27,725 nucleotides of DNA. It comes from an uncultured bacterium. Lineage in GTDB: Bacteria > Gemmatimonadota > Gemmatimonadetes > Gemmatimonadales > Gemmatimonadaceae. The stretch spans positions 1 to 27,725 of the forward strand of contig CAXBQP010000043.1 in NCBI GenBank assembly GCA_963978095.1, read 5' to 3'. Made by a program: the position numbers and the translations under genes. Under the pieces are notes generated by a model. That model did no database searches, was not told the DNA's origin, and saw only the letters and a program-made list of their open reading frames with translations. Of this stretch, positions 1 to 27,053 are shown in pieces. Position 1 is the first letter of the stretch. Each line of letters begins with the position of its first letter.

Positions 1-1073
1 GCTCCCCCTCGTCCGCCACCGCCCGTCGTATCGTTGCCGAGCCGCAGTGCGCGCTTGTTGATCGTCGAGACCACCTTGCCCGTGGCATCCCAGAGCTCCT
101 CGTTGCTGCCGAAGCTCGTGTACTGGACCACATACGAGAACGGCTTCTGCATCGTGCTGACGCGGAAGTACTGCCCGTCCGGCGAGGCATCCACGCTCTG
201 GATCATCTGCGGCGCGCCGATCTTCTTCACGGCCTTGGTCTTCACGTCGATGAGCGCGAGTTGGCCGGTCGTGTAGTACTCGAGCAACTCCATCTCGTAC
301 GGTTCGTTGAGCAGACTCGCGAAGTTGCGTTCCGCGTCCTTCACGCCGTCGGTCCACAGGCGGACGTTCGGGCCAGTGGCGATCTCGGGCTTCTTGGGCT
401 CGGGCTTCCGGCCATCCGGCAGCTGGACGACCACCACGCTCTTGCCATCGGCGGTCCAGTCGATCGCGGTCACGAGCGTCGCGAGGAGCGGCGTCTTGGT
501 GACCTGCACCGACTTGCCGGTGGCGATGTCGGCGACGAAGACGTGCGAGGCGTCGTCGAAGTTGGCGACGAACGCGATCTGCTTGGCATCCGGTGCCCAC
601 GACGACCCGCTGATGGTCGCGCCCTTGGGCGCGTCGATGCTGACGGTCTTCCCGGCCACCGGGTCGATCAGTTGCAGGCCGGTCGCGCCCCGCGTCGTGA
701 GAGCACGGGCACGGTTGGCCTTGAAGTCCACTTGCAGGCCGCCCAGGTAGTAGTGCGCTTTTCCGAACGCGGTGACGCTCGGCAGCCCTTCGCTCTGCTC
801 TTTCAGGAAGAACTTCCGGTCCGGACTCGGCTGCGAGAGCGCGACATTCAGGTGGCGCGGCGCGGCGACCAGTGCGGTGATCTCGCTGGACGGGACCGCG
901 TAGGTCTCCTTCGCGAGCTGCGCTTTGTCGGCGACAAGCCATCCCGGTTCCTGCTTGCCGGCTGCCGCGGCCTGCGCGCCTTGCGCTCGCAGACTCGGCG
1001 TCGTGAACAGTGCGAGCGACGCGACGACGGCGCCGCGCGCGGTGAGGCGGAAGAAGGGACTGGTCCGCATCAT
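1..1073 (-). CDS. S9/prolyl oligopeptidase-family serine peptidase, exported; N-terminal part only (runs off the left edge)
   Basis: Absent from the ORF track because there is no stop in the window. Manual translation from ATG 1073/1070 (GAGGA upstream) is open to base 1: MMRTSPFFRLTARGAVVASLALFTTPSLRA-QG (signal peptide), then YAVPSSEITALVAAPR, propeller-type repeats SWAPDAKQIAFV / IDWTADGKSVV / ASPDGQYFRV, and LLEYYTTGQLALID and KPFSYVV, typical of S9 peptidase N-termini. The catalytic domain lies outside the window. Confidence 0.75.
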   Translation of the reverse strand, partial: MMRTSPFFRLTARGAVVASLALFTTPSLRAQGAQAAAAGKQEPGWLVADKAQLAKETYAVPSSEITALVAAPRHLNVALSQPSPDRKFFLKEQSEGLPSVTAFGKAHYYLGGLQVDFKANRARALTTRGATGLQLIDPVAGKTVSIDAPKGATISGSSWAPDAKQIAFVANFDDASHVFVADIATGKSVQVTKTPLLATLVTAIDWTADGKSVVVVQLPDGRKPEPKKPEIATGPNVRLWTDGVKDAERNFASLLNEPYEMELLEYYTTGQLALIDVKTKAVKKIGAPQMIQSVDASPDGQYFRVSTMQKPFSYVVQYTSFGSNEELWDATGKVVSTINKRALRLGNDTTGGGGRGG

Positions 1074-1225
1074 GGATCCTCAAAGAGGGGGGTGGGGGGA
1101 CGGCCCGGGGCGGCCGCTCCGAACGTGCCTAGAACATACGTGCCGCGCATGGGCTCCGCTGAGGGGCAGCGACCAGTCATCGTCGGGGAGTGCTCTGCGG
1201 GCCGGTTCGGGGTATCTTGCGGGAT

Positions 1226-3400
1226 ATGACCATTTCCTCTCGCTCGCTGCTGGCCGGCCTGGCGCTCCTGCTCGGCGTCGCCTCCCCCCGATCAGCGGTC
1301 GCGCAGTCCGGCAGCGCCGGCGCCAAAACGCCTGCCAAGCCAGGGGCCGCGTCCGTGGGCGCCCCGACATCTATGTCCGTCAAGCGGTTGCCCCTGGCCG
1401 TCACGGACATCGCCGACATCGTGACCCTGGAGAAGCTGGAGGATCGGCGCGACTACGACGCGGCGACGTTGCAGCGCATCTCCACCGCCAAACATCCGGA
1501 GCTGCGTCGGCGCGCGGCGCTCGCCATCGCGCGGCTCTACGACCCGCGGGGGCGCGCTCTGCTGCGCGCCATGCGCACGGATCCCGATACCGCGGTGCTG
1601 GCGACGGTCGCATGGGCGACGGGGCAACTGGTGGACACGAGCGCGGTGGCCTGGCTCGATTCGTTGCTGCAAGGGACCAAGACCCCGGTGGGGGTGGCCA
1701 CCGAGGCGGCCGGGGCGTTCGGGAAGATTCGGACCACTGACACCCGGCTCCGGCTCTCGTTGTACCTCGGCAACGCCACCGCAGGGCCGCGAACGGCCCC
1801 GGTCGTCGCGGAAGCCTTGCTGGCGATCGGTCGACACCGGGAGCGTGGGGCGATCGGTGCGATCGTGCGGTGGGCGCAGTCGGCGGACGTCGAACTCCGC
1901 TGGCGTGCCGCGTGGGCCCTGTTCCGCAACCGGGACCCCGCCGCGATCCCTGATTTGATGGCGCTCGCCACGGACCCGTCACCGGAGGTGCGGTTTTGGG
2001 CGGTTCGTGGTCTGAGCGGTGCCCGTGCGGACTCGTCGGACGTGGGCTCTGCCGGCACGCGGCCGGTACTGCTTGCCGCATTGCGCGATGCGGATCGTCG
2101 GGTACAGACCGAGGCTGTCCGCACCTTGGGGAGCTACTCGGACGCCGGGTCGCTGATCCAGCTGACGCTGTTGTTGAACGCCGAGGATATGTGGATCGCC
2201 ACGACGGCCGCCGAAGGGATCGGCTCGCGTGGCGACAAGTCGCGGGCGGCGATCGCCCAGCTGGTGAGCTCCACGGAATCCGACAATCCGACCTGGATCC
2301 GCGCCGCGGCGCTGAGCGCGCTGGCCGACGTCTGGCTCGCCGCGGCGCTTGAGCCGGCAACCGCGATGGCGAAGGACACATCCCTCACCGCGCGGACGGC
2401 GGCGGCGCAGGTGCTGGCGAAGCTCGGCGTCGGTGCGCGCGAAGGGTTGGAGTCGTTGCTCAAGGATTCGGATCGCGCCGTCCGCGCCACCGCGTGGACG
2501 GGGTATCTGAGCCTCGCGGACACCGTGGACGAACTCCCGCTGCGGCGCGTGGCCCGGCGCGGTGCGTTCGCGTCGCAGGACGTGGCGGTTCGCGCGGCGG
2601 CCGCTGCCTCGATGGCCAAGTGGGCCGACGCCTCCGACATCCCCACGCTGCTCGCCGCGTTCGCGGTCGCGCTGACGGACAGTGCGCTCATCGCCCAGGA
2701 ATCCACGATCGAGGCGCTCGCGGACATCGAGCAGCGCGGGGGCGGGGCCGCGGCGGCGTTCTTCGCCAAGTATCCGGTGGCGCCGAGCGATGCGGTGTAC
2801 GGATTTGCGGGCCGCGGCTTCGGCGCCAAGACGATCGCCGCGTGGGGCACGGGGCGTCCGGTGCGCACCACGCGTACCGACGCCGATTATCAGCGGATCG
2901 TCGAGTCACTCATCATCCCGGTGTACAATGGCGGGCCGGCACCGCGTCTGCGCTGGGAGACCACCAAAGGCATGGTCGATACCGAGCTGAATCCACTCGA
3001 TACGCCGCTCGCCGCCGACTACCTGTTGCAGCTCACCGCCAAGGGGACGATGCAGCACGTCCGGTTCGACCGCGTCGTGCCGAACTTCGTGGCGCAGCAG
3101 CGTGAGGCGGAAACCAACGAACCGCTCCAGCGCGATGAGATCAGTCGCGGTCGTTTGGTCCGCGGTAACCTCAGCTGGGGGTCGAACATCGGTAACGCCC
3201 CCCGGTTCCCGGGGCGCGGCCCCGGCGCGGCGTACGACACGGGACCAGCGGTGTACACGTTCGGCGTCACGCCGCAGCCGCACAACGAAGGCGACTTCTC
3301 GGCGCTCGGGCATGTGATCCGGGGGATCGACGTCGTCGACCGGCTGGAGCTCGGCGACTATGTGAAGTCGGTGCGGGTGCTGAAGCCCGGCGAGAAGTAG
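1226..3400 (+). CDS. Exported HEAT-repeat protein with C-terminal degenerate cyclophilin-like domain
   Basis: Signal peptide (MTISSRSLLAGLALLLGVASPRSAVA-Q) and many HEAT/PBS repeats (PELRRRAALAIAR, DVELRWRAAWAL, SPEVRFWAVRGL, DRRVQTEAVRTLG). C-terminal ETTKG..FDRVVPNFVAQ..PQPHNEG..GHVIRGIDVVD. ATG 1226 preferred over the ORF-track start at 1190. Confidence 0.8.
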   Translation: MTISSRSLLAGLALLLGVASPRSAVAQSGSAGAKTPAKPGAASVGAPTSMSVKRLPLAVTDIADIVTLEKLEDRRDYDAATLQRISTAKHPELRRRAALAIARLYDPRGRALLRAMRTDPDTAVLATVAWATGQLVDTSAVAWLDSLLQGTKTPVGVATEAAGAFGKIRTTDTRLRLSLYLGNATAGPRTAPVVAEALLAIGRHRERGAIGAIVRWAQSADVELRWRAAWALFRNRDPAAIPDLMALATDPSPEVRFWAVRGLSGARADSSDVGSAGTRPVLLAALRDADRRVQTEAVRTLGSYSDAGSLIQLTLLLNAEDMWIATTAAEGIGSRGDKSRAAIAQLVSSTESDNPTWIRAAALSALADVWLAAALEPATAMAKDTSLTARTAAAQVLAKLGVGAREGLESLLKDSDRAVRATAWTGYLSLADTVDELPLRRVARRGAFASQDVAVRAAAAASMAKWADASDIPTLLAAFAVALTDSALIAQESTIEALADIEQRGGGAAAAFFAKYPVAPSDAVYGFAGRGFGAKTIAAWGTGRPVRTTRTDADYQRIVESLIIPVYNGGPAPRLRWETTKGMVDTELNPLDTPLAADYLLQLTAKGTMQHVRFDRVVPNFVAQQREAETNEPLQRDEISRGRLVRGNLSWGSNIGNAPRFPGRGPGAAYDTGPAVYTFGVTPQPHNEGDFSALGHVIRGIDVVDRLELGDYVKSVRVLKPGEK

Positions 3401-3420
3401 CGCGCCTTCCGGCGACCGGC

Positions 3421-3933
3421 TCAGCGCCCCGGGCGCCTACCGCGACCGCGGCCGATCGCCATTTCGTCCAAAATCTTCTGCAGGGCGTCCTTCTGTTCCT
3501 GGCTCAGCAGGGCGCGAGCGTCGTCCGCCGCCTTGGCGTTGCGCTCGCCGATCTCGCGGAGCAATGGCGCCGCTTCCTGCAGCTTCTGCATGGCCATCGC
3601 GCGCTGTTCCTGCGTCATCAGGCCCGGCGAAGGCCTCGCACTGGTGGTGCTGTCGCCGCGCAGGGCGCGCATCTTGGCCATCGTCGGGGCGTTCGCGGCG
3701 GTCGTGGTGGAGTCGATCCGTCGCATCGTCGCGACCTGCTCCGCCGAGAGTTTGAGGTCGTCCTTGTGGGTGAGAATCACGCCGAGGAGGCTGGCGTCCT
3801 GCGCCGCAGCCATCAGCCCAGCGCCGCGTCCTCGGAGTCCGCCCAGCCCGCGCTGGGCCGTCGAGACGGCTGGAATGGCGGAACACAGGGCGAGGGCCAT
3901 CAGCAGAGGGACAACGCGCGATCGGGCACGCAT
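3421..3933 (-). CDS. Spy/CpxP-like (LTxxQ) periplasmic helical protein
   Basis: AGGAG RBS, signal peptide (..AIPAVSTA-Q), helical Met/Ala/Arg-rich body with LSAEQ, MTQEQ and LSQEQ motifs. Confidence 0.6.
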   Translation of the reverse strand: MRARSRVVPLLMALALCSAIPAVSTAQRGLGGLRGRGAGLMAAAQDASLLGVILTHKDDLKLSAEQVATMRRIDSTTTAANAPTMAKMRALRGDSTTSARPSPGLMTQEQRAMAMQKLQEAAPLLREIGERNAKAADDARALLSQEQKDALQKILDEMAIGRGRGRRPGR

Positions 3934-3991
3934 GGTGGGGCTCCTGGAAGCGGGTGGACAGGCAGCGTGTCGCCTGCGGTCATGGAAATAG

Positions 3992-4017
3992 GACGAGTGG
4001 TCTCCCGTGGACGTTAG
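3992..4017 (-). promoter_or_regulatory. Putative ECF-sigma promoter for the Spy-like gene
   Basis: The minus strand reads CTAAC-N17-CGTC, matching the generic ECF AAC-N17-CGTC pattern, about 60 nt upstream of ATG 3933. Confidence 0.4.
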
Positions 4018-4083
4018 CGGGGGCTGGTGCGGTCAGGGGCCAGCGCTGGTTATCTTTTCCCATCGTTCCCACTGAACCCGATC

Positions 4084-4560
4084 ATGACTTCCGTTACCCG
4101 TACTGCACTGTTCGCGGCACTCGCCGCGTCGATCGCCTGCTCGGGCGGGGCGTCGTCGCTTCCCGCGCCCTCGCCGGAGCGGCTGCCGTTCGCCGAGAAG
4201 CTCGACGTGGATTTCGCCAAGATGACGAAGACCAAGTTGGGTGTCTATGTGCGCGACCTGGAACTCGGGACGGGCCCGCTGGTGGAGACCGGGCAGAACC
4301 TGACGGTCCGCTACACCGGGTCGCTGAACAACGGGACGGAGTTCGACAAAGTCGGCCCGGGAGACAAGCCGATCTCGTTCCGGCTCGGACGGCGACAGGT
4401 GATCCAGGGATGGGACGACGGGATCATCGGCATGCGCGTCGGTGGGCGTCGCCAGCTGGTGATTCCTCCGGATCTGGGATACGGACCCGAGCGCTCGGGG
4501 AAGATCCCGGGTGACGCGACCTTGGTGTTCGTGATCGAGATCGTCGGCGCGAAGTACTGA
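4084..4560 (+). CDS. FKBP-type peptidyl-prolyl cis-trans isomerase, probable lipoprotein
   Basis: Motifs VRYTGSLNNGTEFD, VIQGWDDGIIGMRVGGRRQLVIPPDLGYG and IPGDATLVFVIEI. N-terminal lipobox-like AASIAC. Confidence 0.93.
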   Translation: MTSVTRTALFAALAASIACSGGASSLPAPSPERLPFAEKLDVDFAKMTKTKLGVYVRDLELGTGPLVETGQNLTVRYTGSLNNGTEFDKVGPGDKPISFRLGRRQVIQGWDDGIIGMRVGGRRQLVIPPDLGYGPERSGKIPGDATLVFVIEIVGAKY

Positions 4561-4577
4561 GTGCTGGTGCCGCGGGG

Positions 4578-5561
4578 TCAGTCCCGCCACGCCTCCGCGA
4601 ACTCCCGAACGATGGCACCGGCCGGCTTCACCTCCTGAATGCCGGCGACGCTTTTTCCCGCCTGCCAGTACTCGGCGCCGCGCTCGACTTGCGAACTTTT
4701 CTTCATGGAACGCATGCCCTTGAGTGCGTAATACATGCGCATCCAGTGCTTGGTCTTGCGTCCACGCAGCATCCAGCGGGCGAAGGGCCCGGCCGTGGTG
4801 CCGAGGCGTTTCACGTAGTCGTTGGCGATCACGCTCACGGGAACCCCGGTGAGCCGCTCGGTGAGGGCGATGTCCGCTTCGGTGGCATCCACGATGGCCT
4901 GCTTGTAGGCCTGGCTGGTCCTGCACTCCGGCGTCGCGATGAAACGCGTGCCGAGCTGGACCCCGGCGTAACCGAGCGCCAATTGCTCGGTGAACTCGTG
5001 GGCGGTTCCGACGCCGCCGGCCGAGATCAGCGGGACGCCGAGCGGCGCCAGCGCATCAAAGAGCTCCCGAGGCGAGAGACGTCCCGTGTGCCCACCGGCG
5101 CGGTTGTTGACCGCGATCAAACCGTCGACTCCGCCGTCGAGTCCTTTCTGGGCCCACTTCTTCTCGGTCACGTCGTGATAGACGATACCGCCCGCGGCGT
5201 GCACGCGATCGGCGACCCACTTCGGGTTCCCGAGCGAGGTGATGAAGAAGCGCACCCCTTCTTCGAGTGCGATGTCCACCCACTGGACCATCTTGTTGTG
5301 GTAGGCCTTGGACGACTGCTCGATGAGGGCGTTGAACCCGAACGGTTTGCTCGTGAGCGTGCGAATCTGCCGCAGGCCGGCGCGGAAGTCGTAGCCGTAG
5401 ACGTACGTCAGCGAAATCGGCTGCACGATGCCGATCCCCCCGGCCTCACTCACCGCCGCGACAAGCTCCGGATTGCTGCACGGATACATCGGCCCGCAGA
5501 TCAGCGGGACGTCGATGCCGACGGACCGGGTGAACGGAGTACTCGCGCGAAGCTCGCTCAT
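4578..5561 (-). CDS. Nitronate monooxygenase / FabK-family FMN oxidoreductase
   Basis: Motifs PLICGPM, PELVAAVSEAGGIG, AGGH, PLISAGGV, GVQLGTRFIATPEC and WQAGKSV. Confidence 0.88.
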   Translation of the reverse strand: MSELRASTPFTRSVGIDVPLICGPMYPCSNPELVAAVSEAGGIGIVQPISLTYVYGYDFRAGLRQIRTLTSKPFGFNALIEQSSKAYHNKMVQWVDIALEEGVRFFITSLGNPKWVADRVHAAGGIVYHDVTEKKWAQKGLDGGVDGLIAVNNRAGGHTGRLSPRELFDALAPLGVPLISAGGVGTAHEFTEQLALGYAGVQLGTRFIATPECRTSQAYKQAIVDATEADIALTERLTGVPVSVIANDYVKRLGTTAGPFARWMLRGRKTKHWMRMYYALKGMRSMKKSSQVERGAEYWQAGKSVAGIQEVKPAGAIVREFAEAWRD

Positions 5562-6052
5562 CTGGTTGTCTTGGGGGGGATCGGTCCGAGCTTCCAGCGC
5601 ACGGTGGCGCGTGCCACGAGGTCGCCCGTCGCGTCGGTGAGGGTGCTGTAGAAATCATGCTCCCCCTCAACCGTGAGATCGGGGAGTGCCGGACGGCTCT
5701 CGGCCGTGACCTTGCCGCGCGCTTTCTTGAAGTAGTCGATGGCCAGATGCGTGACGATCCCCCGGTAGCCCGCGGGCAAGGCGGTGGTCATCGCCGCGCC
5801 GCTCGCGAACTCGGCGACGTTCATCAGGGCGATCGCGTGGATCGAGCCGAGGTGCTGCTCCAGCCGGCGGCGTTGCCGGATCGAGATCTTGGCGTAACCG
5901 GGCTCCAGGACCTCCACCCGCGGGTTCACGGAGCCGGTGTAGGGAATCATCTGCTTCACCATGAGGGTGAAGAGGAAGTCGCCGAAGGGGATCTTGCGGA
6001 GCGCGCGATGGGCGTGGAGCAGTCGTTCGCCCGGGGATTCGGTGTGGGCCAT
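5558..6052 (-). CDS. Hotdog-fold (PaaI/DUF4442-like) thioesterase-family protein
   Basis: IPYTGSVNPRV..HLGSIHAIALMNVAEFASG..IDYFKKARG. Real start is ATG 6052. Stop overlaps the next gene's start (ATGA 5558-5561). Confidence 0.8.
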   Translation of the reverse strand: MAHTESPGERLLHAHRALRKIPFGDFLFTLMVKQMIPYTGSVNPRVEVLEPGYAKISIRQRRRLEQHLGSIHAIALMNVAEFASGAAMTTALPAGYRGIVTHLAIDYFKKARGKVTAESRPALPDLTVEGEHDFYSTLTDATGDLVARATVRWKLGPIPPKTTR

Positions 6053-8224: not shown

Positions 8225-9370
8225 ATGCTCATCGCGTTGATTCTCGCCGAGGGCCTTGCGCTGATGGTCCTGCTCGCCAGGCTCGCTGGAGGGCGCACGC
8301 GTCGTCCACCCGAGACGCCCGCGCCCGGAACGGGCGCGCCCGGGTTGGTCACCATCGTGATTGCGACACTGAATGAAGCGGCGCGGATCGCCCCGTTGCT
8401 CCGCGGCGTCGCCGCGCAGGGCGACGTGGTGAAAGAGATCCTTGTCGTCGACAGCCATTCGACGGACGGCACCCGTGAACTCGTCACCGCCGCTGCGGCG
8501 CGCGATTCGCGGATTCGGCTCCTCACCGACCCGCCACTCCCCCCGGCGTGGGTCGGCAAGGCGTGGGCGCTACAGCACGGGCTCGAGCACGCGACCACCG
8601 AATGGGTGCTGGGACTCGATGCGGATACCGAGCCCGCCTCCGGCCTCGCCGACGCCGTCGTTGCCGCCGCTGACCGCGAAGGGTTTGACTGTGTTTCCTT
8701 CAGCCCCTGCTTCGACGGGCAGACGACGGCGGAACAGTTGGTGCAGCCAGCGATACTCGTCACCCTGATCTACCGCTCAGGGGCGGCGGGGGACCCGCGT
8801 GTCCGTCCGGACCGCGTGCTGGCCAACGGGCAGTGCTTCCTCGTGCGAAAGGCGGTCCTCCTCGCGCACGGCGGCTACGAGCCCGTCAAGGCGTCCTTCG
8901 CCGAGGACGTCTCGCTCGCGCGGCGGCTGGCCTCACGCGGCGTGCCGGTGGGGTTCCTGGATGGCTCGCGTCTCTACACGGTGCGGGCGTACTCCGGACT
9001 CCCGCAGATGTGGCGCGAGTGGGGGCGCTCGATCGCCCTCCGCGACTCGGTTCCTGTGGTGAAGCAGTGGTTCGACATTGCCATCCTGTTCTTGGCGCAA
9101 GCGTTGCCGCTCCCGCTCACCCTCGTGATCGCCGGCGGACTCGTCCCGCTGGCCCCCTCTCCGGAACGGACTGCCCTCTCCTGGCTGGTGGGCACGCTGC
9201 TGAGCGTGCGACTGATGATGTTGCTGGCGATCCGGGGTTCGTATTCCCGCCGCGGCGTCGCGTTCTGGCTCAGCCCGCTGGCCGATCCGGTCGCGTGGTG
9301 GCGTATCGTGCTCTCGACGCTGCGCGGCCCCACGCACTGGCGCACACGCCGCTATACCAGCGCCAGCTGA
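8225..9370 (+). CDS. cruG: GT2 glycosyltransferase, CruG-like (carotenoid 2'-O-glycosyltransferase)
   Basis: TLNEA, VVDSHSTDGT, PLPPAWVGKAWAL, DADT, RVLANGQCFL, SFAEDVSLAR, GFLDG and WREWGRS, colinear with cyanobacterial CruG as I recall it. N- and C-terminal TM helices. Confidence 0.7.
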   Translation: MLIALILAEGLALMVLLARLAGGRTRRPPETPAPGTGAPGLVTIVIATLNEAARIAPLLRGVAAQGDVVKEILVVDSHSTDGTRELVTAAAARDSRIRLLTDPPLPPAWVGKAWALQHGLEHATTEWVLGLDADTEPASGLADAVVAAADREGFDCVSFSPCFDGQTTAEQLVQPAILVTLIYRSGAAGDPRVRPDRVLANGQCFLVRKAVLLAHGGYEPVKASFAEDVSLARRLASRGVPVGFLDGSRLYTVRAYSGLPQMWREWGRSIALRDSVPVVKQWFDIAILFLAQALPLPLTLVIAGGLVPLAPSPERTALSWLVGTLLSVRLMMLLAIRGSYSRRGVAFWLSPLADPVAWWRIVLSTLRGPTHWRTRRYTSAS

Positions 9371-9397
9371 CCTCGCCGCGGCCGACCTCGCCGCGGC
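9369..9397 (+). repeat. 14-bp tandem direct repeat GACCTCGCCGCGGC x2
   Basis: Exact copies at 9369-9382 and 9384-9397, directly at the cruG stop. Confidence 0.85.
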
Positions 9398-9446
9398 AGC
9401 GGATCCTGGGAGCACAGTTTCCGCTCCAGCGCGCCGATACTCCCAG

Positions 9447-11675
9447 TTGATGACCGTACCCGTGCGCGCCCCCGCCCCGACCTTCGACCACCGCGCGTCC
9501 CGTGCCAATGGGACGCGGGCGTTCGCGCTCCTGGGCCTGCTCGCCGGGGTGCTCCTTGGCCTGGCACTGCCTCGCGCCGCGGCGGCGCAGCAGGTGAACC
9601 CGGCGTCCCCGCGAAGCGGGGCCCGCAGCAGATCGCCGAGGCTCGCCCGCCACGTGCCCGCGTGGACCCTCGGCTCCCCATCCACCGCCGTCCTCCGTGC
9701 CCAGGGGCCGGCCGATTACGCCGAGCATTTGGTGTCGCTCGGCTACGATGTCTGGCACTACGACCGCAGCTGGGTGCGGCTCTCGACCCGCGACGACCGC
9801 GTGGTGGCCTGGGCCAATACCGACGGCACCCTTGTCGTCGAGTTGCGGCCAAGTGGCCCGGTACTGTCCGATGCCACGTTCACGCAGGGGTCCACCCGCG
9901 ACGACGTGCTCCGGTTACAGGGGACGCCGACCGTGTATCTGCCGCGGACGAATGACGGTGTCACCGCCATGCAGTATGGCGCGGCGGTGGTGCACCTCAG
10001 CGAGCGGGACAATCGCGTGGTGGCGTGGAGCGACCCTACCGGCCGCCGACTGAAGGTTCGAGCCACGGGCCCCGTGGCTGCGGCGCGCCCGATCCCGAAA
10101 CCGACGGCTCCGGCCTCGCTCGCGGCGACCCTCGCGTGGAATGATGCGTCCGGCGACGGGTACCTCGACGACGGCGAGCAGGCCCGCATCACGCTGACGG
10201 TCACCAACCGCGGGCCGGGGACCGCCTACGCAGTGACCCCGGCGCTGCTCAATATCGAAGGCTGGGACGGGCTCCGCATCGTGAGCGCCGAGCCGGTGGA
10301 TTCGATTGCTCCAGCCCACACGGCGACGCTCTCCTTGCGTGTCGTCGGGGCGTCAGGGCTGGAGGACTCCCGCGTGCAACTGCTGGTGGGGGTGCACGAG
10401 GGGAACGGGTTTGATCTCGACCCGTCGCTCTCCCTCGATATCCCGACGCGTCGAGCCCGCGCGCCCCGGTTCGCGCTCGATGGGATTGCCGTGAACGATC
10501 AGTCGGCGAACGGACGGATCGAGCCACGTGAGATCGTCGAGGTCATTGCACGCATTTCCAACCATGGGGAAGGCGAAGGGCAGGGGGTCGAGTACGCGGT
10601 GGTGCCCGGGGCGGGTGTCACGTTGACGCCTGACTCAAAGGCGAACGGCGTGATCGGGACTCTACGGGCCGGCGAGTCGCGCGACCTGCATTTCAGCGCC
10701 TTCTCGAACTCGCGGGCGTCCGGGTTTCCGGTGTCGATCACCGTGAGTGAGCCGCGCGCGCGTTACGACACCTCGTTGGTGCTTCCGTTGGCGCTCGACC
10801 GCCCCGTGAATGAACTCCCGTCGCTGGTGGTGCGCGGTCGGAAGGCTGCGGTCACCTCGGCGCCGGCACTCGTGTCGCCGGTCGACACGGGGATCCCTCG
10901 CGCGCCGCGGCGCAGCAACGTGGTGGCGGTCGTGCTCGGCGCCGAGCGATACGAGCACGCCCCGGAAACACCGCTCGCACGGCGCGATGCCGCGGTCTTT
11001 CGCGAGTATGTCCGCAACGTCTTCGGCGTCGGGGATGATGATTCGCGCCTGCTGTTCCGCACCGACGATGAAGTCTCCGGCACCGAACTGCGGCGCACCT
11101 TCGGTGATGGGGGGTGGCTCGCACGTCGCGTGTCGGCCGAAACCGATGTAGTCGTCTACTGGGCCGGCCACGGAGTCACCGATCCCAAGACGCGGAAAGC
11201 GTACCTGTTGCCCAACGACGGCGATCCATCGTACCCCGCACAGACGGGATTCGCGCTCGACGAGTTGTATGATCGGCTCGCGGCACTCGGGGCACGCTCG
11301 GTGACGGTCTTCGTGGACGCCTGCTTCAGCGGGCGCTCGCGGGACGGTGCCGCGGTCGTGGCCGGCTCGCGCGGTGTCGTGGTCAGTCTTGAACACCCGG
11401 CGTTGCGGGCCAAGAACATGGCGGTCTTCGCGGCCGCGCGCGGCGATCAGTTTGCCAGCGCCTGGCCCGAGGGGCAGCACGGCGTCTTCACGTACGCGCT
11501 CTTGGCGGGGCTTCGCGGCGCGGCGGACACGAATCATGACGGGTCCATCACTGCCGGCGAGCTGGCGGCCTACATCGCACGCGAGGTGCCGCGCACGGCG
11601 GCCCGCATCGACCGGGAACAGACGCCGGAGTTCGTCTCGCACGACCCGGCGCGGCCGGTGGTGGTGCTGAAGTGA
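9447..11675 (+). CDS. Exported multidomain caspase-family (C14) peptidase
   Basis: Signal peptide (..FALLGLLAGVLLGLALPRAAAA-Q), two ~60-aa repeats and two Ig/CARDB-like domains. Caspase domain has VVAVVLGAERY, YWAGHG (His 11169-11171), VFVDACFSG (Cys 11322-11324), HGVFTYALLAGL and ADTNHDGSITAGEL. Start is TTG 9447 or ATG 9450. Confidence 0.88.
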   Translation: MMTVPVRAPAPTFDHRASRANGTRAFALLGLLAGVLLGLALPRAAAAQQVNPASPRSGARSRSPRLARHVPAWTLGSPSTAVLRAQGPADYAEHLVSLGYDVWHYDRSWVRLSTRDDRVVAWANTDGTLVVELRPSGPVLSDATFTQGSTRDDVLRLQGTPTVYLPRTNDGVTAMQYGAAVVHLSERDNRVVAWSDPTGRRLKVRATGPVAAARPIPKPTAPASLAATLAWNDASGDGYLDDGEQARITLTVTNRGPGTAYAVTPALLNIEGWDGLRIVSAEPVDSIAPAHTATLSLRVVGASGLEDSRVQLLVGVHEGNGFDLDPSLSLDIPTRRARAPRFALDGIAVNDQSANGRIEPREIVEVIARISNHGEGEGQGVEYAVVPGAGVTLTPDSKANGVIGTLRAGESRDLHFSAFSNSRASGFPVSITVSEPRARYDTSLVLPLALDRPVNELPSLVVRGRKAAVTSAPALVSPVDTGIPRAPRRSNVVAVVLGAERYEHAPETPLARRDAAVFREYVRNVFGVGDDDSRLLFRTDDEVSGTELRRTFGDGGWLARRVSAETDVVVYWAGHGVTDPKTRKAYLLPNDGDPSYPAQTGFALDELYDRLAALGARSVTVFVDACFSGRSRDGAAVVAGSRGVVVSLEHPALRAKNMAVFAAARGDQFASAWPEGQHGVFTYALLAGLRGAADTNHDGSITAGELAAYIAREVPRTAARIDREQTPEFVSHDPARPVVVLK

Positions 11676-12595
11676 GGCCGTCTGCGGTGCTTCGCGCGCG
11701 TGGCGGGCGCCTGCACCGGTGGCGCGTCGCCAGTCGGCACGCGCTCTCCGTGGTCGCGTGCCTGCTGTCGGCACGGGAAGCACGCGCCCAAGCCCCCACA
11801 TGGGTCGAGGTCGAGCGTCGCGTGTCGCTCACCGACGGCCGTACGGCCGCAGAGGTCAAGGCCATCGCGTTGCAAGAGGCGCTCGCGGAAGCCGTTCGGC
11901 GCGTGGCTGGCGTACGGATCTCGGGCACCCAGTCCGCCGTCACCGGTGACTCCGCCGGCACGCGGATCGACCGCTTCGAACAGGCGGTGCGACTCGACGT
12001 CTCAGGGCGCGCCACGCGATGGGAGACGGTGCGCGAGGAATGGCGGTCGGCGCGATCCGGCGAGAGCGCCCCGCCGATGCTGGTGCTGACGATGCGCGTG
12101 CAGGTCACGCCCGAGGTCGGCCAGCGCGATGCGGGATTCGGCGTCACGTTGGGCGCGCGGTCGACACGTTTGATGGTCCGGGGCGAGTCACCAGCCGCGA
12201 ACGACGAGATCATCGCGACGGTGCGGACCACCGTCGACGCCTTCATCACGCTCGTGAGCGTGGCCGGCGATTCGGTGTTCGTACTCGCGCCGAACGCGGT
12301 CACGCCGCGCGTGGCCGCCGCGCCTCGCGAAACGATCGAGATCCCGGACGCCGAATCGCGCCGGATCGGCCTGCACCTGCGCGTGACGCTGCCGTCGGGC
12401 GTTCGCGGGCGTGAGGAGCGGTTGGTGGCGGTTGCCACGCGGAGCCCCGTGACGCCTCCGGGTGTGGCTGGCGTCGGGGAGGCTCGGGACACCGGGGTGC
12501 TGAGCCTGGAGGGATTCAATCAGTGGCTGGTCGGGATCCCGCTCGGCGAGCGCTCCCTGGCCGAAATGCCGATCGAAGTACGGAGAACGCCCTGA
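11672..12595 (+). CDS. Exported protein with FlgT_N/LPP20-like N-domain and DUF4384-like C-domain
   Basis: GTGA overlap with the caspase stop. Signal-like ..VVACLLSAREARA-Q, then AEVKAIALQEALAEAVRRVAGVRISG (FlgT_N-like). C-terminal DEIIATVRTTVDAFITLVSV..VFVLAPN..IEIPD..GREERLVAVATR (DUF4384-like). Confidence 0.6.
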   Translation: MRPSAVLRARGGRLHRWRVASRHALSVVACLLSAREARAQAPTWVEVERRVSLTDGRTAAEVKAIALQEALAEAVRRVAGVRISGTQSAVTGDSAGTRIDRFEQAVRLDVSGRATRWETVREEWRSARSGESAPPMLVLTMRVQVTPEVGQRDAGFGVTLGARSTRLMVRGESPAANDEIIATVRTTVDAFITLVSVAGDSVFVLAPNAVTPRVAAAPRETIEIPDAESRRIGLHLRVTLPSGVRGREERLVAVATRSPVTPPGVAGVGEARDTGVLSLEGFNQWLVGIPLGERSLAEMPIEVRRTP

Positions 12596-12630
12596 CCTGC
12601 CGATACTCAAGGCATAGAGGAGGCATCATC

Positions 12631-13209
12631 ATGAAGAAACTGTGCATCGCAGCTGGACTGCTCGCGCTGTCGGCGTGCGCCAGCCATCAGGGAAAGGTCG
12701 ACCAGTCGGCATCACCGGAGACACTGCGGCAGATGCCGGGGTGGTATCGGAAGCCCCCGAAGTCGGACGACCGGTGGATCGTGGCACCGGCGACCGGGGA
12801 GTCGCGTGATTTGCAGGTGGCGCTCAACAAGGCGGAACTCGAGGGGCGTACGGCGCTCGCCTCGCAGCTCGAGGTGAAGCTGGGCGGGTTGCAGCGTCGG
12901 TTCGTGGAGGAAACCGGGCTCGGCGCGGATGCGACGGCGCTCGGAGAGTACGAGCAGACGGCCAAGGCGGTCATCAGTCAGGTGCTGATCGGTAGCCACG
13001 CACGCGAGCAGCAGTTCACGCTCGACGCCGGCACCTACCGTGCCTGGGTGCTGATGGAACTGCCGGTCGGAGAGGCCAGCAAGGCCCTGCTCGAACGGCT
13101 CAAGCAGCAGGAAGCGATCGTGACGCGCATTCGTGCGTCGGAAGCATTCAAGGAACTGAATGCCGAGGTCGAGAAGTACGAGAAGCGCAAGGACGCTGGC
13201 AAGCCGTAG
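12631..13209 (+). CDS. LPP20-like lipoprotein
   Basis: Strong SD GAGGAGG at 12617-12623 and lipobox MKKLCIAAGLLALSAC. PGWY..PP..ATGESRDLQVALNKAELEGRTALASQL..YRAWVLMEL is an LPP20/FlgP-like pattern, followed by a coiled-coil tail. Confidence 0.7.
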   Translation: MKKLCIAAGLLALSACASHQGKVDQSASPETLRQMPGWYRKPPKSDDRWIVAPATGESRDLQVALNKAELEGRTALASQLEVKLGGLQRRFVEETGLGADATALGEYEQTAKAVISQVLIGSHAREQQFTLDAGTYRAWVLMELPVGEASKALLERLKQQEAIVTRIRASEAFKELNAEVEKYEKRKDAGKP

Positions 13210-13276
13210 GGAGGTCGATGTCGGGGCCGTGGTCCCGCACGCTGGGGGGGAAGGGGGAGCGGCGACTGGCAACGAC

Positions 13277-13313
13277 ACGAAACGGGCGACGGAGTGACCG
13301 TCGCCCGTTTCGT
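13277..13313. terminator. Bidirectional intrinsic terminator-like hairpin
   Basis: Perfect 16-bp inverted repeat ACGAAACGGGCGACGG-agtga-CCGTCGCCCGTTTCGT between the convergent LPP20-like gene and pntB. Confidence 0.8.
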
Positions 13314-13336
13314 TGTGTGACGCGGCCGCCGTTCGC

Positions 13337-14815
13337 CTAGTGGCTGTCGTCGAGCGCCTTGATCTCCTTCACGAGCGAGCCGAGAACGTTCTTGGCGTCG
13401 CCGTAGAGCATCAGGGTGTTGTCCTTGAAGAAGAGCGGGTTTTCCACGCCCGAGAAGCCCGTGCCCTTGCCGCGCTTGATCACGTATACGGACTTGGCGG
13501 TCCACGGACGGAAAATCGGCATGCCGAAGAGGGGTGACGACTTGTCCTCCTCAGCGTCCGGATTCACGATGTCGTTGGCGCCGATGATCACGGCCACGTC
13601 GGCCGTCTGCAGCACGCGGTTGGCGTCGTCCACGTCGGTAAGGAGCGCGCCGTAGTCGATCCCGGCTTCCGACAGGATGACATTCAAGTGTCCCGGCATG
13701 CGGCCGGCCACCGGGTGGATCGCGTACTTGACCTCGCCCCCCTTCTTGGCGATCAGCTCCATCAGCTCGCGGCAAATGTGTTGGGCCTGGGCGACCGCCA
13801 TGCCGTAGCCCGGCACGATGACCACGGAGCCGGCATACGCCAGCTGCACCGCGGCGTCCTCGGCGGTGATGGTCTTGGATTCCTTGGCCTCGCCCTTGGC
13901 CTTTGCCGCCGCCGGCGCGCCGGACCCGAAGGCGCCGAAGATCACGTTGGCGAACGACCGGTTCATGGCCTTCGACATCATGACGGAGAGGATGAACCCG
14001 CCGGCCCCCTCCAGGGCGCCGGCAATAATAAGCACATTGTTACCAATTGCGAATCCCGTCGCGGCGGCGGCGAGGCCGGCGTACGAGTTGAGCAACGAGA
14101 CGACCACGGGCATGTCGCCGCCCCCGATCGGCAGCACCATGGAAACGCCGAGGAACAGCGAGAGGGCGACCATCGCATAGAACGCCCAGGCCGTCTCCGG
14201 TTGGTAGATCAGCATGCCGAAGCAGCCGAAGGCCACCGCGATGAGCGCCAAGTTGACGGCGTTCTGCCCACGGAAGGTGATCGGCCGCCCGGTGATCAGC
14301 TCCTGCAGCTTGCCGAACGCCATGAACGAGCCGGTCACGGTCAGTGCGCCGAACAGCACTTCGAAACCGAGCGCTCCCGCCACCCCGTGGGAGAGTCCCG
14401 GGGTGAGCCCGGTGACCTCGTTCGGCGTGTAGGCGTGCCGGTATTCCACGATGCCCACGAGGGTGGCGGCGATGGCCCCGAAGGCATGCGAGAAGGCGAT
14501 GAACTGCGGCATCGCCGTCATGGGGATCTTCATCGCCATCGGATAGCCCGCGATCGCACCAACGACGAGCCCGAGGATGATCCACTGGTACGTGAGAATG
14601 CCGGAGTTCAACAGCGTCCCGACGACGGCGAACAGCATGCCGGCGGCCGCCTGCTGCATGCCGCGGCGCGCGGTATCCGGACGGGTGAGCGAGCGCAGGC
14701 CAAGGATGAAGAGGACGCTGGCCGCCAGATACGATGCTTGCACGATCAGGTCGCGCGTGCCGTTGATCTGCGGACCATCCTCGAGCAGACGGAAGAGAGC
14801 GAAGAGATGGCTCAC
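13337..14815 (-). CDS. pntB: NAD(P) transhydrogenase subunit beta
   Basis: MTAMPQFIAFSHAFG, IGGGDMPVVVSLLNSYAG, IVPGYGMAVAQAQH, IHPVAGRMPGH, IGANDIVNP and GFSGVENPLF. GTG 14815 overlaps the pntAB stop. Confidence 0.95.
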   Translation of the reverse strand: MSHLFALFRLLEDGPQINGTRDLIVQASYLAASVLFILGLRSLTRPDTARRGMQQAAAGMLFAVVGTLLNSGILTYQWIILGLVVGAIAGYPMAMKIPMTAMPQFIAFSHAFGAIAATLVGIVEYRHAYTPNEVTGLTPGLSHGVAGALGFEVLFGALTVTGSFMAFGKLQELITGRPITFRGQNAVNLALIAVAFGCFGMLIYQPETAWAFYAMVALSLFLGVSMVLPIGGGDMPVVVSLLNSYAGLAAAATGFAIGNNVLIIAGALEGAGGFILSVMMSKAMNRSFANVIFGAFGSGAPAAAKAKGEAKESKTITAEDAAVQLAYAGSVVIVPGYGMAVAQAQHICRELMELIAKKGGEVKYAIHPVAGRMPGHLNVILSEAGIDYGALLTDVDDANRVLQTADVAVIIGANDIVNPDAEEDKSSPLFGMPIFRPWTAKSVYVIKRGKGTGFSGVENPLFFKDNTLMLYGDAKNVLGSLVKEIKALDDSH

Positions 14816-22505: not shown

Positions 22506-23816
22506 CTACCGCGTCACGCCGCGGAACGTCGGCGTCCAGGTCGGGAAGATGTAGTCGAGGTTGGTATTCCCGAGCCGCTTCTGCACGATTTCGGCGAGCA
22601 CGTCCCGGTAGTCCAGTGTCACCTTGAGGTCCTGTCCGTTCTCCAGGTTCGCGGCGGCGAGCCCGGGCCATCCGTTGGTGACCACCCGTCCGCCGGCGAT
22701 CCCTTTTCCGATGGCGAGCATCGCGCTCGCGCGGCCATGGTCGGTCCCGGCGCTCCCGTTCTCCTTGGCGTTGCGGCCGAACTCGGACATCGAGATCACC
22801 GTCACGCCGATCATCGCGGGCGCGATGACGTCGGCATGGAACGCGCCGAGCGCGTTGGCGAAGTCGCGCATCGTGACGGACATCGATCCGGCGACCGGGT
22901 CCTGCGCCGAGTGCGTGTCCCACCCGCCAACGTCGACCTGCGCCGCTTCGAGCCCGATATCCGCCTTGATCAGCACGGCCACGGCCTTGAGCGCATTGCC
23001 GAAACTGCTGGTGGGATACACGGCGCCGTTCGCGGGCACATAGCCGCTGAAGTTGACCGACTTGAGCAGATTCAGCGTGTTGACGGCGTCGAGCGCCGAA
23101 CTGCGCAACGGTTCGTCCGCAACGGCGTAGTCGGATTGCAGGGCGGCGACGCGCGCGGCCTGCGTGGTGGTCGAACCGCCGATCGAGAAGGTCGACGGGC
23201 TCGAGATCGGCAACGTCTTCGGTCCGCCCACGAGCGTCTTCTGCAAGCCGGCGGAGATGCCGATGCCGCGCAGGGGAGCGGCGGGATTGATCGGCGGCGC
23301 GCTCGCCAAATGGCGGCCGAGCCACCCGGTGACCAGCGACGGGTCGGCGGGTTTCCCGACTTCCATGTAGCGCTGGGCGTCGAAGTGGGAGCGCGAGTTG
23401 TTGGTCTGTCCGATGGCGTGCAAGACCAGCAGGTCGGCATTGAGGTATGCCGGCACGAGCGCGGCCATCGCCTGCGGGAACGCGAAGAAGTTGTCGAGCG
23501 CGATGCCGCGCGTCGCGGGAGTCGTGGCGTCGGGGCGGGGGATCGCAATCGTCGGGCGGAGCGTGTAGTAGTTCGGATCGCCGAACGGCACGCACACCGA
23601 CATGCCGTCCGCCCCGCCGCGCTGGAAGACCGACACCATGACGTCGCGGGTCGACACATACGTGGAGGCGAGCACCACCTTGGGCAGCCAGGCGGGATGC
23701 AAGGCGGCGGCCGCGAACGCCGTACCGGCGCCGCCCACGAACTGTCGTCGCGACAGCGCGCGGTATTCCTCGCAGCCCGTGGTGTCCTGCAACTCCGGTT
23801 CCGGGGGGATGCTCAT
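22506..23816 (-). CDS. DUF1501 family protein, Tat-exported
   Basis: Tat motif SRRQFV; VFQRGGADG, SRSHFDAQ, TGWLGR, GGWDTH, MSEFGR, GTDHG and DLKVTLDYRDVLAE. Confidence 0.9.
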   Translation of the reverse strand: MSIPPEPELQDTTGCEEYRALSRRQFVGGAGTAFAAAALHPAWLPKVVLASTYVSTRDVMVSVFQRGGADGMSVCVPFGDPNYYTLRPTIAIPRPDATTPATRGIALDNFFAFPQAMAALVPAYLNADLLVLHAIGQTNNSRSHFDAQRYMEVGKPADPSLVTGWLGRHLASAPPINPAAPLRGIGISAGLQKTLVGGPKTLPISSPSTFSIGGSTTTQAARVAALQSDYAVADEPLRSSALDAVNTLNLLKSVNFSGYVPANGAVYPTSSFGNALKAVAVLIKADIGLEAAQVDVGGWDTHSAQDPVAGSMSVTMRDFANALGAFHADVIAPAMIGVTVISMSEFGRNAKENGSAGTDHGRASAMLAIGKGIAGGRVVTNGWPGLAAANLENGQDLKVTLDYRDVLAEIVQKRLGNTNLDYIFPTWTPTFRGVTR

Positions 23817-23817
23817 C

Positions 23818-25374
23818 TCAGTACCACTGAAAGGCCTGCGCGCTCAACGCGAGCGACATCGTCTCGCGGACGCGGAGGTCGTTGAAGGTCCCGCCCTTGA
23901 TGTACGTCAGCAGATTCGTCCGGAGCGCAGCCGATACCTCGCCGCCGTAGAACTCGTTGATGATGCGGTCCACCGCCGCGTCCGCGGTGCCGGTGAGGTA
24001 GGGCGCGGTGTCGACCTTCACGGTGGTGGTGGAGTTGGAGCTCGCCAGCGACACGGAAAAACTCCACCGCGGCAGGATATTGCCGGACCAGTACTCCACC
24101 TTGTCCGGATACCCGTCCGGCGTCTCATAGACGAAGAGCGGCTGGCCGATCCCACCCAGCTGGCCGTTGAGCGTCGTCGCCGAGACCACCTGCGCGGAGG
24201 TCGCGCGCAGGGCCGACACCATGAAGTGAAAGGGACGCTTGAACTTGGCCGGTGCCGCCGCGAGCCAACTCTCGTTCAGGATGGCCCGCACCACGAGCTT
24301 GATGTCCCCCTGCGTGGCGCGGAACACCCGCGCGACGGCCGTGATCTGCGCTGTGGTCGGCTCGGCCTGCAACAGCCACCGGAGCAGCTTGGTGCTGATG
24401 AACGTCGCGGTGTTGGGGTGCGCGGCGAGATAATCGATGAAACGCTCGCCCTCTGCCTGCGTCCCGTTCGCATCCGCCGCGAAGACCTGCCCCATGATCA
24501 CCTTCTGGGCGGTGTCGTGGAGCGTCGGGTTGAAATAGAACGTCCCGGTCCCCGTGGTGGTCCATCCGGTGAGGAGTCGCGACAACTCGGCGACATCGGT
24601 CTGCGTGTATCCGTTGTCGACGCCGAGGGTGTGCAACTCCATCAACTCGCGGGCGTAGTTCTGGTTGGGCGCTCCCTTTCGGCTCTGCGTTTGATCCAGG
24701 TACGAGAGCATCGCCGGGCTGTGCGCCGTCGCCTGCAGCAAGTCACGGAAGCGGCCCAGGGCGTTTGCCCGGATCACGTCGCGGTCGTCGGCGACCTTCA
24801 GATAGCCGACCTTGCCGATCGAGATGTTGAAGTGATCGCTCCAGAACTCCACCATGCGCTCGAACAGTTGCCGCTGCGAGAACGCTGCCCGGTACAGCGT
24901 CGCTTCCTGCAGCTGCGCCTGCACCGTGGAGGACGTCGTGGCAAAGAGGACGTCGTTGGTGGCGCGCAGCAGCGGCCACCGCGCCGCGATCACGGCATCG
25001 ACGTCCGTATCGTCGATTGTCGAGGGATGCAGCTGCTGATTCAAGTATTCCTGATAACCGAGCACGCTCACGCGCATCATCTCGGTGGCGGAGATCCCCA
25101 TGGTGATGCGACGCACGAGACGCGCATTGTTGTTCACCCAGGCGGGCAGCGCCGCCACCGACTCGTTGACCAATCGTGAGGGAAACTGCGCGGTCGGCGT
25201 GACCTGGTTCGGGTCACGGGGCACCGGGGCGCGCGGTGTCGGCAGCTTCTTCGGCGGCGGCGGATGCCAAATGCCGACCGCCTGCGCCTTGACGGCCCGC
25301 GGGAGCGCGGCGAGCCCCGCCAGCGCGCCGAGCAGGAAACCTCGCCGCGAGGCGCCGTCGCCCGAGGGGGACAT
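23818..25374 (-). CDS. DUF1800 family protein, Tat-exported
   Basis: Start ATG 25374 with Tat motif SRRGFLL..AVKA-Q; QLFERMVEFWSDHFN, SPAMLSYLD, PNQNYARELMELHTLG, HPNTATFISTKL and GQPLF..PDGYP. Confidence 0.9.
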   Translation of the reverse strand: MSPSGDGASRRGFLLGALAGLAALPRAVKAQAVGIWHPPPPKKLPTPRAPVPRDPNQVTPTAQFPSRLVNESVAALPAWVNNNARLVRRITMGISATEMMRVSVLGYQEYLNQQLHPSTIDDTDVDAVIAARWPLLRATNDVLFATTSSTVQAQLQEATLYRAAFSQRQLFERMVEFWSDHFNISIGKVGYLKVADDRDVIRANALGRFRDLLQATAHSPAMLSYLDQTQSRKGAPNQNYARELMELHTLGVDNGYTQTDVAELSRLLTGWTTTGTGTFYFNPTLHDTAQKVIMGQVFAADANGTQAEGERFIDYLAAHPNTATFISTKLLRWLLQAEPTTAQITAVARVFRATQGDIKLVVRAILNESWLAAAPAKFKRPFHFMVSALRATSAQVVSATTLNGQLGGIGQPLFVYETPDGYPDKVEYWSGNILPRWSFSVSLASSNSTTTVKVDTAPYLTGTADAAVDRIINEFYGGEVSAALRTNLLTYIKGGTFNDLRVRETMSLALSAQAFQWY

Positions 25375-26012
25375 CAGAGGGCGATGTTCAACAGGGCCAA
25401 TCCCATCCCGATCCCGCCGAGCCACGTGGCGGTCTGGAGGGCACGATACTTGGCAACGTTGATGCCAGCCAAGTCGTAGATGCCGCGAAGCAACATGCGA
25501 TTGCTCTCCTCGTCGCTGATGGACTCCATGGCCGTGGTCCATGCTTCAACGGAAGCATGCTTCCGGATGGCCTCCCAGTAGATCGCCCCCTTGGGCACAT
25601 TGCGTCCGACGCGCGGGACGATCACCCAGAGGGCGGTGAATCCGCCCGCCGCCAGGAAGACGATGGCGAGTTCACCACACGCCCCGCCGATGGTCCAGTT
25701 GGCCAAGGGAGATGAACGGATGCTGCTGAGGCCGCGCGTCTTCTCGAGGAAACTCGCGAACGCATTCGCCCCGAAGACGATGAATGTGGCCTTGCGGTCG
25801 GCGAACTCGATCGACCGACGTTGGTAGTCGTGGACGATCTTGTAGAGATCGCCCTTTCGGGACTTGTCCCCTTTGTCCTTCTTCCCCTTCTTCTCCTCCG
25901 CCGCCACAGCGCCGACGACGGCGGCGTCGATCTGCGCCAAGACCTCGGGATCCGCGACAGCATCGGACAGCGACGACAACGGAGTGGACACGAAGGCTCT
26001 CGGTTCGGGCAT
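25374..26012 (-). CDS. Pycsar effector (PycTM/DUF5706)-like membrane protein, 212 aa
   Basis: The real gene is the 3' part of ORF 25374..27038, starting at ATG 26012. It shows IEFADRKA + TM, a second TM ending in PR, GAIYWEAI, IYDLAGINVAKYRAL and a C-terminal TM. This is the characteristic PycTM motif order. Confidence 0.75.
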   Translation of the reverse strand: MPEPRAFVSTPLSSLSDAVADPEVLAQIDAAVVGAVAAEEKKGKKDKGDKSRKGDLYKIVHDYQRRSIEFADRKATFIVFGANAFASFLEKTRGLSSIRSSPLANWTIGGACGELAIVFLAAGGFTALWVIVPRVGRNVPKGAIYWEAIRKHASVEAWTTAMESISDEESNRMLLRGIYDLAGINVAKYRALQTATWLGGIGMGLALLNIAL

Positions 26013-26066
26013 GGCGCAGGAGGATCTCGTGCGCTGGACACGTGACCCTCCCGGGGGCGTACCGGA

Positions 26067-26073
26067 TATGATA
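26067..26073. promoter_or_regulatory. Overlapping bidirectional -10 elements (pirin / PycTM-like gene)
   Basis: TATGATA reads TATGAT on + (26067-26072) and TATCAT on - (26068-26073), within the 93-bp divergent gap. Confidence 0.45.
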
Positions 26074-26105
26074 CTGTTCGAAAGACAATCCGTCGAGAGG
26101 TCCGT

Positions 26106-26999: not shown

Positions 27000-27015
27000 T
27001 CCGGCGGGCCGAACG

Positions 27016-27053
27016 AACGGGGGCGGCACGCGAATCACGTGCCGCCCCCGTTT
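27016..27053. terminator. Intrinsic terminator-like hairpin between convergent pirin and M28 genes
   Basis: Perfect 15-bp inverted repeat AACGGGGGCGGCACG-cgaatca-CGTGCCGCCCCCGTT. Confidence 0.8.

Follow-up and report, generated by a model that had tools for sequence, protein, structure and literature searches.

Genes and features of the locus

The DNA analysed here, referred to as the window throughout, is a 27,725-nt stretch of contig CAXBQP010000043.1 (assembly GCA_963978095.1) from an uncultured member of the Gemmatimonadaceae (Gemmatimonadota), with a G+C content of ~68%. Between positions 9447 and 13209 of its + strand lie three genes, here called A, B and C, which encode a caspase-family protease and a partner protein, both with export-type N-termini, and an LPP20-family lipoprotein; together they represent a real, conserved and uncharacterised caspase module of the orthocaspase kind, predicted to act in the envelope. 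The first-pass annotation of this DNA, made from the sequence by eye, had described three co-directional genes joined by a GTGA coupling and a 35-nt gap, and all of this is borne out by the coordinates of the three open reading frames (ORFs; 9447–11675, 11672–12595 and 12523–13209). The GTGA at 11672–11675 is common to the stop of A and the start (GTG) of B, and C starts at ATG 12631, with a GGAGG ahead of it, 35 nt from the stop of B (12595). The start of gene A is most likely the ATG at 9450, one codon past the TTG at 9447; its product has 741 aa counted from the ATG and 742 aa from the TTG, and the residue numbering of protein A starts at the TTG throughout. The features are as follows:

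9450–11675, + strand: gene A, predicted exported caspase-family protease (ORF, Pfam Peptidase_C14, start-codon inspection)
9450–9587, + strand: N-terminal signal-like segment of A, residues 2–47 (hydropathy, kept in homologues; presumably cleaved)
9654–10061, + strand: two BamE/BLIP-like repeats of A, residues ~70–205 (self-alignment, Atlas lead)
10104–10811, + strand: two CARDB-like immunoglobulin (Ig) domains of A, residues ~220–455 (sub-cut-off Pfam CARDB, weak self-alignment)
10923–11657, + strand: caspase (Peptidase_C14) domain of A, residues 493–737 (Pfam)
11169–11171, + strand: catalytic His575 of A (AGHG motif)
11322–11324, + strand: catalytic Cys626 of A (DACFSG motif)
11672–12595, + strand: gene B, predicted exported partner protein, 307 aa (ORF, GTGA start)
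11792–12115, + strand: N-terminal alpha/beta domain of B, residues 41–148 (fold model; FlgT_N/FlgP-like at fold level)
12122–12592, + strand: C-terminal beta-sandwich of B, residues 151–307, including DUF4384 at 177–259 (Pfam, VIA)
12631–13209, + strand: gene C, LPP20-family lipoprotein, 192 aa (start codon, lipobox, relatives, fold model)
13277–13313, no strand: perfect 16-bp hairpin between C and the convergent pntB

Conservation of the three-gene unit in Gemmatimonadota

A scan of species-representative genomes with an alignment of B returned 20 loci, all of them from Gemmatimonadota. Of these loci, which were retrieved by way of B, 19 also contain A and all 20 contain C; the three genes are contiguous on one strand in 18. 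The first-pass annotation had made its proposal depend on the genes occurring together elsewhere, and they do: the A-B-C set is not a chance arrangement but recurs in related and in unrelated genomes. In locus L012, a gene for a 1343-aa Trans_reg_C/AAA_16 protein (1738–5769, − strand) lies between A and B, and the sole locus without A, L008, ends inside a gene of the same type (1150 aa, 1–3453, − strand; 72% identity between the two). As L008 breaks off in the very gene that separates A from B in L012, its missing A is a contig-end effect. This Trans_reg_C and AAA_16 gene may be a dedicated regulator. The genes that flank the unit in the window (S9 peptidase, GT2, PntAB) are shared by just 7 of the 20 loci; thus the triad is kept, not its neighbourhood.

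Within the phylum the B family is thinly spread. Matches at E ≤ 1e-10 occur in 6 of 151 sampled genomes, and none was detected in two genomes of the window's own genus; these figures are lower bounds, since the genome search for PF00656 missed even the caspase of the window. Such a patchy distribution is expected for an accessory module. Seven further loci were drawn from five of the six B-positive genomes (one of them being L005 again): a caspase gene stands beside B in six, and a C-type lipoprotein is found in three. The arrangements vary—L041 has the order C-A-B with the 4-nt overlaps kept, L038 carries two C14-FGE-sulfatase proteins, in L040 B is flanked by a CARDB-C14 and a WD40-C14 gene, and in L037 (G078:C31:59000-72000) a short C14 gene is divergent from B, which is followed, with a 4-nt overlap, by a Ser/Thr kinase gene.

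Two of these loci contain additional genes. L040 (G006:C42:4000-16000) also encodes a reverse transcriptase, an HRDC protein, a separate FGE-sulfatase protein and a TPR-CHAT protease, and this gene content resembles that of a diversity-generating retroelement with a group of clan-CD proteases next to it. In L037 an RCC1-repeat/Big_1 ORF of >1500 aa comes after the short C14 gene.

Occurrence beyond the phylum and natural fusions

Searched against 1.84 billion representatives, the B profile matched 944 clusters (defined at 50% identity) at E ≤ 1e-3; of these, 511 remain at E ≤ 1e-10 and 86 at E ≤ 1e-30. When metagenomes were scanned with four distant family members, seven loci of 30–45% GC emerged, and a check of the neighbourhoods in these contigs from outside the phylum demonstrated that B-caspase pairs recur there. 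A complete CARDB-C14 gene accompanies B in two of the seven: L022 contains B, a FadL-like protein, a TPR protein, CARDB-C14 and two LPP20 genes, and L023 contains B, a 158-aa ORF and CARDB-C14. In two others, L026 and L028, B is followed by an A-like ORF that the contig end truncates; L027 does not extend far enough for a judgement. The remaining two, L024 and L025, share one sequence, in which B lies between a protein with a type IX secretion system (T9SS) tail and a CHASE2 cyclase.

Two observations from these contigs stand by themselves. The CHASE2-adenylate/guanylate cyclase (L025:4140-6308, +) is located directly downstream of B, in the place of the caspase, which suggests that the B module is able to serve other signalling outputs. 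The 158-aa ORF, predicted to be exported and without a Pfam match, is found between B and the caspase gene at L023:1504-1980 and L028:3459-3935 and may be a further component in the low-GC lineage.

We also found two natural fusions of caspase and B. P0169 combines a signal-like N-terminus, a C14 domain with intact dyad, CarboxypepD_reg/PEGA and a B-like region (595–848), whereas P0110 consists of CARDB, C14 and then B, i.e. the architecture of A plus B.

Protein A: a caspase with an export-type N-terminus

Residues 493–737 of protein A match Pfam Peptidase_C14 with 49.7 bits (cut-off 21.4; E 4.9e-13). The intact His-Cys dyad noted at first sight is confirmed: His575 and Cys626 are present in A and kept in 17 of 17 aligned homologues, two of which come from low-GC metagenome contigs. 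An EF-hand-like D-x-N-x-D-G loop (residues 694–705) is largely conserved. By hydropathy, the N-terminus has a core at residues 24–41 (most hydrophobic 15-mer 27–41) followed by AAA-QQ, and a similar hydrophobic segment is seen in most A homologues. The export signals ascribed to all three proteins are indeed discernible as export-type N-termini that predict export, the segment being weak in the window copy of B.

Ahead of the protease domain, two repeats of ~70 residues each align with each other (self-alignment score 79); an Atlas search with residues 60–215 pointed to BamE/SmpA/BLIP clusters at 0.79–0.85, below the trust line of 0.9 and hence to be taken as a lead only. The following region scores 18.9 bits with Pfam CARDB, below the cut-off, and the domain is found above the cut-off in homologues. 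A profile of A reached metacaspase and MALT1 structures in the PDB at just E 0.08–0.7 and a designed Ig protein at E 0.002, and PADLOC matched A with its generic caspase model only (E 2.1e-9). Membership in the NCBIfam family caspase_w_EACC1 (NF047832) was considered and rejected, as the score of 72.5 bits is only about half the cut-off of 140. A second Peptidase_C14 gene exists on another contig of the same genome (G000:C44:14929-15813, 90 bits, within a 625-aa open frame).

Protein B: the DUF4384 partner

The by-eye assignment of DUF4384 to B is vindicated by its relatives, since the domain (PF14326) is matched in 20 of 25 close and 41 of 42 wider ones. Nearly all members of the family possess an N-terminal hydrophobic segment ending in A-x-A/Q. 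The AlphaFold model of B (predicted local distance difference test score, pLDDT, 84) comprises two domains, and comparing them singly with VIA-align was more informative than Foldseek on the whole model, which returned only weak multi-domain matches (best TM 0.25). Residues 151–307 are Ig/MG-like, with Z ~8 to RbmA, GbpA and complement MG domains. For residues 41–148 the matches are tied, with dodecin at Z 7.6, FtsA domain 1C at Z 7.5 and a SIMPL-like protein also among them. Profiles of B gave nothing significant against PDB sequences (best E 0.25, then 0.15).

The possibility that the N-terminal domain of B is a diverged LPP20 domain found no support in a profile comparison of C with B, which was not significant (probability 4%). 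PADLOC matched neither B nor C to any defence-system model. In a separate tally, on which none of our conclusions depends, DUF4384 was found in 38 of 61 genomes, the tally including G057, which is unpublished.

Protein C: an LPP20-type lipoprotein

Protein C carries the lipobox L-S-A-C, whose Cys16 is shared by all 22 aligned sequences and predicted to be lipidated. Its LPP20 nature, likewise first proposed by eye, was substantiated by relatives, profile and fold model: LPP20 (PF02169) is matched in 17 of 22 relatives (best E 4.3e-9), the family profile finds Helicobacter pylori Lpp20 (HP1456, PDB 5ok8) at E 0.0022, and Foldseek places 5ok8_A on top for the C model (pLDDT 77; E 2.1e-4, probability 1.0, TM 0.64 normalised by target length). 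HP1454, encoded in the same H. pylori operon as Lpp20, appears lower in the Foldseek list at E 0.14. In contrast to H. pylori Lpp20, C has an additional long and conserved C-terminal helix (residues 146–189) after the core; also, we know of no caspase in the H. pylori lpp20 operon.

Predicted contact between A and B

Complex prediction was run with the caspase domain (480–742) and mature B (40–307), both supplied as alignments, and resulted in weak support: the score was 0.60 (0.60, 0.64 and 0.57 in the individual runs), and none of the three controls scored above 0.00. Between runs, at least 75% of contacts agreed, and the partner reached a pLDDT of at least 77. Of 157 solved complexes, 116 attain the mark set for this score, as do 2 of 215 mismatches; at 0.60 or under, those passing are just 18 of the solved complexes and both mismatches. 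Binding of A and B was likely beforehand, because of the fusions and the start-stop overlap, and the score adds no more than modest support to it.

Other features of the window

The strong hairpin reported downstream of C exists as a perfect 16-bp stem at 13277–13313, and the 131-nt stretch holding it has a z of −2.64. Lacking a T run, it was not scored as an intrinsic terminator in the consensus scan, which yielded 0 promoter or terminator sites across 9200–13450. Further downstream, the − strand contains an ordinary-looking pair of neighbouring DUF1501 and DUF1800 genes (22506–25542) and a 554-aa ORF (25374–27038), the C-terminal part of which matches PycTM, the Pycsar effector transmembrane domain (Pfam E 2.8e-10, PADLOC E 6.5e-13), the N-terminal 390 residues being without a match. 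This ORF may encode a defence-type effector.

Relation to known systems

Characterised orthocaspases, e.g. MaOC1 of Microcystis, are treated as cytoplasmic. Orthocaspases with accessory domains (WD40, FGE-sulfatase, GUN4, DUF4384) share with A the C14 domain and its His-Cys dyad. Here, in contrast, DUF4384 resides on a separate, translationally coupled and predicted exported protein with an extra alpha/beta domain, an LPP20 lipoprotein belongs to the unit, and the caspase is combined with BamE-like and CARDB-like domains. The logic of a lipoprotein partner that tethers or steers an envelope protease is shared with the pairs of outer-membrane lipoprotein and periplasmic protease NlpI-Prc and LbcA-CtpA; those, however, employ S41 serine rather than C14 cysteine (clan CD) proteases and TPR rather than LPP20 lipoproteins, and are without a DUF4384 partner.

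In the excerpted text of two papers (PMC6426788, PMC7475262) DUF4384 is recorded as an accessory domain of orthocaspases, and in such excerpts it occurs fused to orthocaspases, kinases and other proteases. According to a passage of a 2012 survey, many prokaryotic metacaspases have an N-terminal helix that is maybe a signal peptide (PMC3501461). Within the main texts of open-access papers and preprints, our search turned up none that deals with this operon, nor any that describes an exported caspase partnered by a DUF4384 or LPP20 protein. The first-pass description of the system as undescribed can therefore be upheld for the split three-protein exported module, but not for the pairing of C14 with DUF4384, which the excerpts above already have in print as a fusion.

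Proposed mechanism

We consider it fairly probable that A, B and C constitute an extracytoplasmic caspase module in which B binds the caspase, C tethers the assembly and variable domains choose the target. Protein A would be exported through Sec, presumably with cleavage of its signal peptide, and ahead of its C14 protease domain would present two BamE-like repeats and two CARDB-like Ig domains, which are binding domains of an envelope type. B, predicted to be exported as well, would be the dedicated partner of the caspase domain, i.e. an in-trans version of the DUF4384 module found in cis in many orthocaspases and some kinases, and most likely holds, positions or gates the protease. C, presumably in contact with B, would tie the module to a membrane, probably the outer one on its inner face. 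As its output, the module would cleave one or several proteins of the envelope or arriving from outside, with the target chosen by the variable domains before or behind the caspase. Orthocaspases and metacaspases are specific for Arg/Lys and depend on Ca2+; by analogy, cleavage by A would probably occur after basic residues and probably be calcium-dependent.

Several observations weigh against this interpretation. The export signals of A, B and C were read from hydropathy and motifs rather than by a signal-peptide predictor, and the hydrophobic segment of the window's B (residues 19–33) is weak in hydropathy. The same copy of B scores 22 bits with DUF4384 (E 1.8e-4), below the cut-off of 27, so that, with its relatives matching, membership holds at the family level, and the window's C does not match Pfam LPP20 (PF02169) itself. 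C-type lipoproteins were detected in only three of the seven further loci, which puts C outside the invariant core. B also occurs apart from caspases: none is near it in L024/L025, and L039 has a partial B-like match with no caspase within ~6 kb. In the fusion P0110 the catalytic Cys is replaced by Ser (D-A-S-F for D-A-C-F), with the His kept; not every member, then, need be an active protease, and this one could be a pseudo-protease, a nucleophile swap or an assembly error. Finally, the complex prediction carried the verdict 'weak support' and returned no interface.

Alternative explanations

One alternative, the model of the first-pass annotation, is a ring scaffold with proximity activation, in which C, perhaps with the N-terminal domain of B, would form a FlgP/FlgT-like oligomeric ring beneath the outer membrane that concentrates caspase domains and lets them activate each other. 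The H-ring and disc of Vibrio and Campylobacter motors combine an LPP20-like lipoprotein, FlgP, with a FlgT_N-like alpha/beta protein, FlgT, and C and B would resemble this pair if the N-terminal domain of B is indeed FlgT_N-like; the excerpted preprint on the Vibrio LPHT-ring lists FlgH, FlgI, FlgT, FlgP-C, MotX and MotY in its entry and describes FlgP as contacting FlgT, with the FlgP tail bound in a groove of FlgT (bioRxiv 10.64898/2025.12.04.692373). The LPP20-like character of C in relatives, profile and fold, together with its long conserved C-terminal helix, would fit such a scaffold, and so would the fact that FlgP-type lipoprotein chains are the only PDB sequence matches of the B profile, at a non-significant E of 0.15–0.17. 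Residues 41–148 of B moreover align to the Vibrio LPHT-ring chain 8z5n_5 (Z 7.3, rmsd 2.2, 65 residues, 20% identity), a 352-residue chain that would be one of the ring proteins listed above. The FlgT_N signal itself turned out to be marginal, with weak matches to PF16548 in 6 of 42 B relatives (best E 1.2e-4) and none in the window copy, and dodecin and FtsA-1C match the fold of this domain equally well; the FlgT_N assignment made by eye is thus a plausible fold-level idea and not established. Furthermore, B has DUF4384 where FlgT has its middle and C-terminal domains, the window has no flagellar context, and several B-caspase loci are without C. We regard a ring as rather unlikely.

To about the same degree, we doubt that B is a latency factor blocking the caspase until a signal arrives, or a substrate cut by A to free a fragment. 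The tight coupling of A and B and their fusions are compatible with both roles. There is also a precedent in the available text on Csx30, in which DUF4384 is one type of C-terminal domain and which is the substrate of the caspase-like Csx29 (bioRxiv 10.1101/2022.08.17.504292). In the B model, low-confidence loops (85–87 and 97–106) flank a D-S-A-G-R/T motif conserved in close relatives; this motif, however, is not kept in distant ones, and complex prediction gave no interface.

Slightly less likely still is a surveillance device, with a constant core and interchangeable receptor domains, in which a ligand would trigger the firing of a periplasmic caspase. The core would be the caspase domain, B and the LPP20/FlgP-like lipoprotein as an oligomeric platform under the outer membrane, and the receptors would be of the CARDB/BamE-like type in this locus and, in others, WD40 domains or FGE-type domains diversified by a retroelement; on binding a foreign ligand or a sign of envelope damage, the protease would cluster and fire in the periplasm. 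If true, bacteria would possess, outside the cytoplasm, their own equivalent of receptor-driven caspase activation.

That A is a secreted or surface protease for feeding or adhesion, with B and C as mere export or anchoring helpers, appears improbable. Domains of the CARDB and BamE-like types are characteristic of proteins at the surface and in the envelope, and an S9 peptidase gene is conserved upstream in close relatives, yet the S9 and GT2 flanks accompany just 7 of the 20 loci. The distribution is also patchy (a lower bound of 6 of 151 genomes at E ≤ 1e-10). The sensor-type domains found with the caspases, including WD40, FGE-sulfatase near a reverse transcriptase and neighbours with CHASE2, are easier to reconcile with recognition than with bulk digestion. 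That the three genes are unrelated neighbours is contradicted by their conserved adjacency amid changing flanks, by the fusions, the start-stop overlaps and the recurrence in low-GC contigs, and is most improbable.

Implications

Caspase homologues are numerous in bacteria, but almost none has a known job, and those that have been studied are treated as cytoplasmic. The module described here would place an apparently active caspase, as judged from its conserved dyad, in the envelope together with a dedicated partner and a lipoprotein, and the large B family travels with caspases of differing recognition domains. It offers a compact three-gene system for testing the location, the partner dependence and the substrates of an exported caspase, and DUF4384 would thereby gain a first function.

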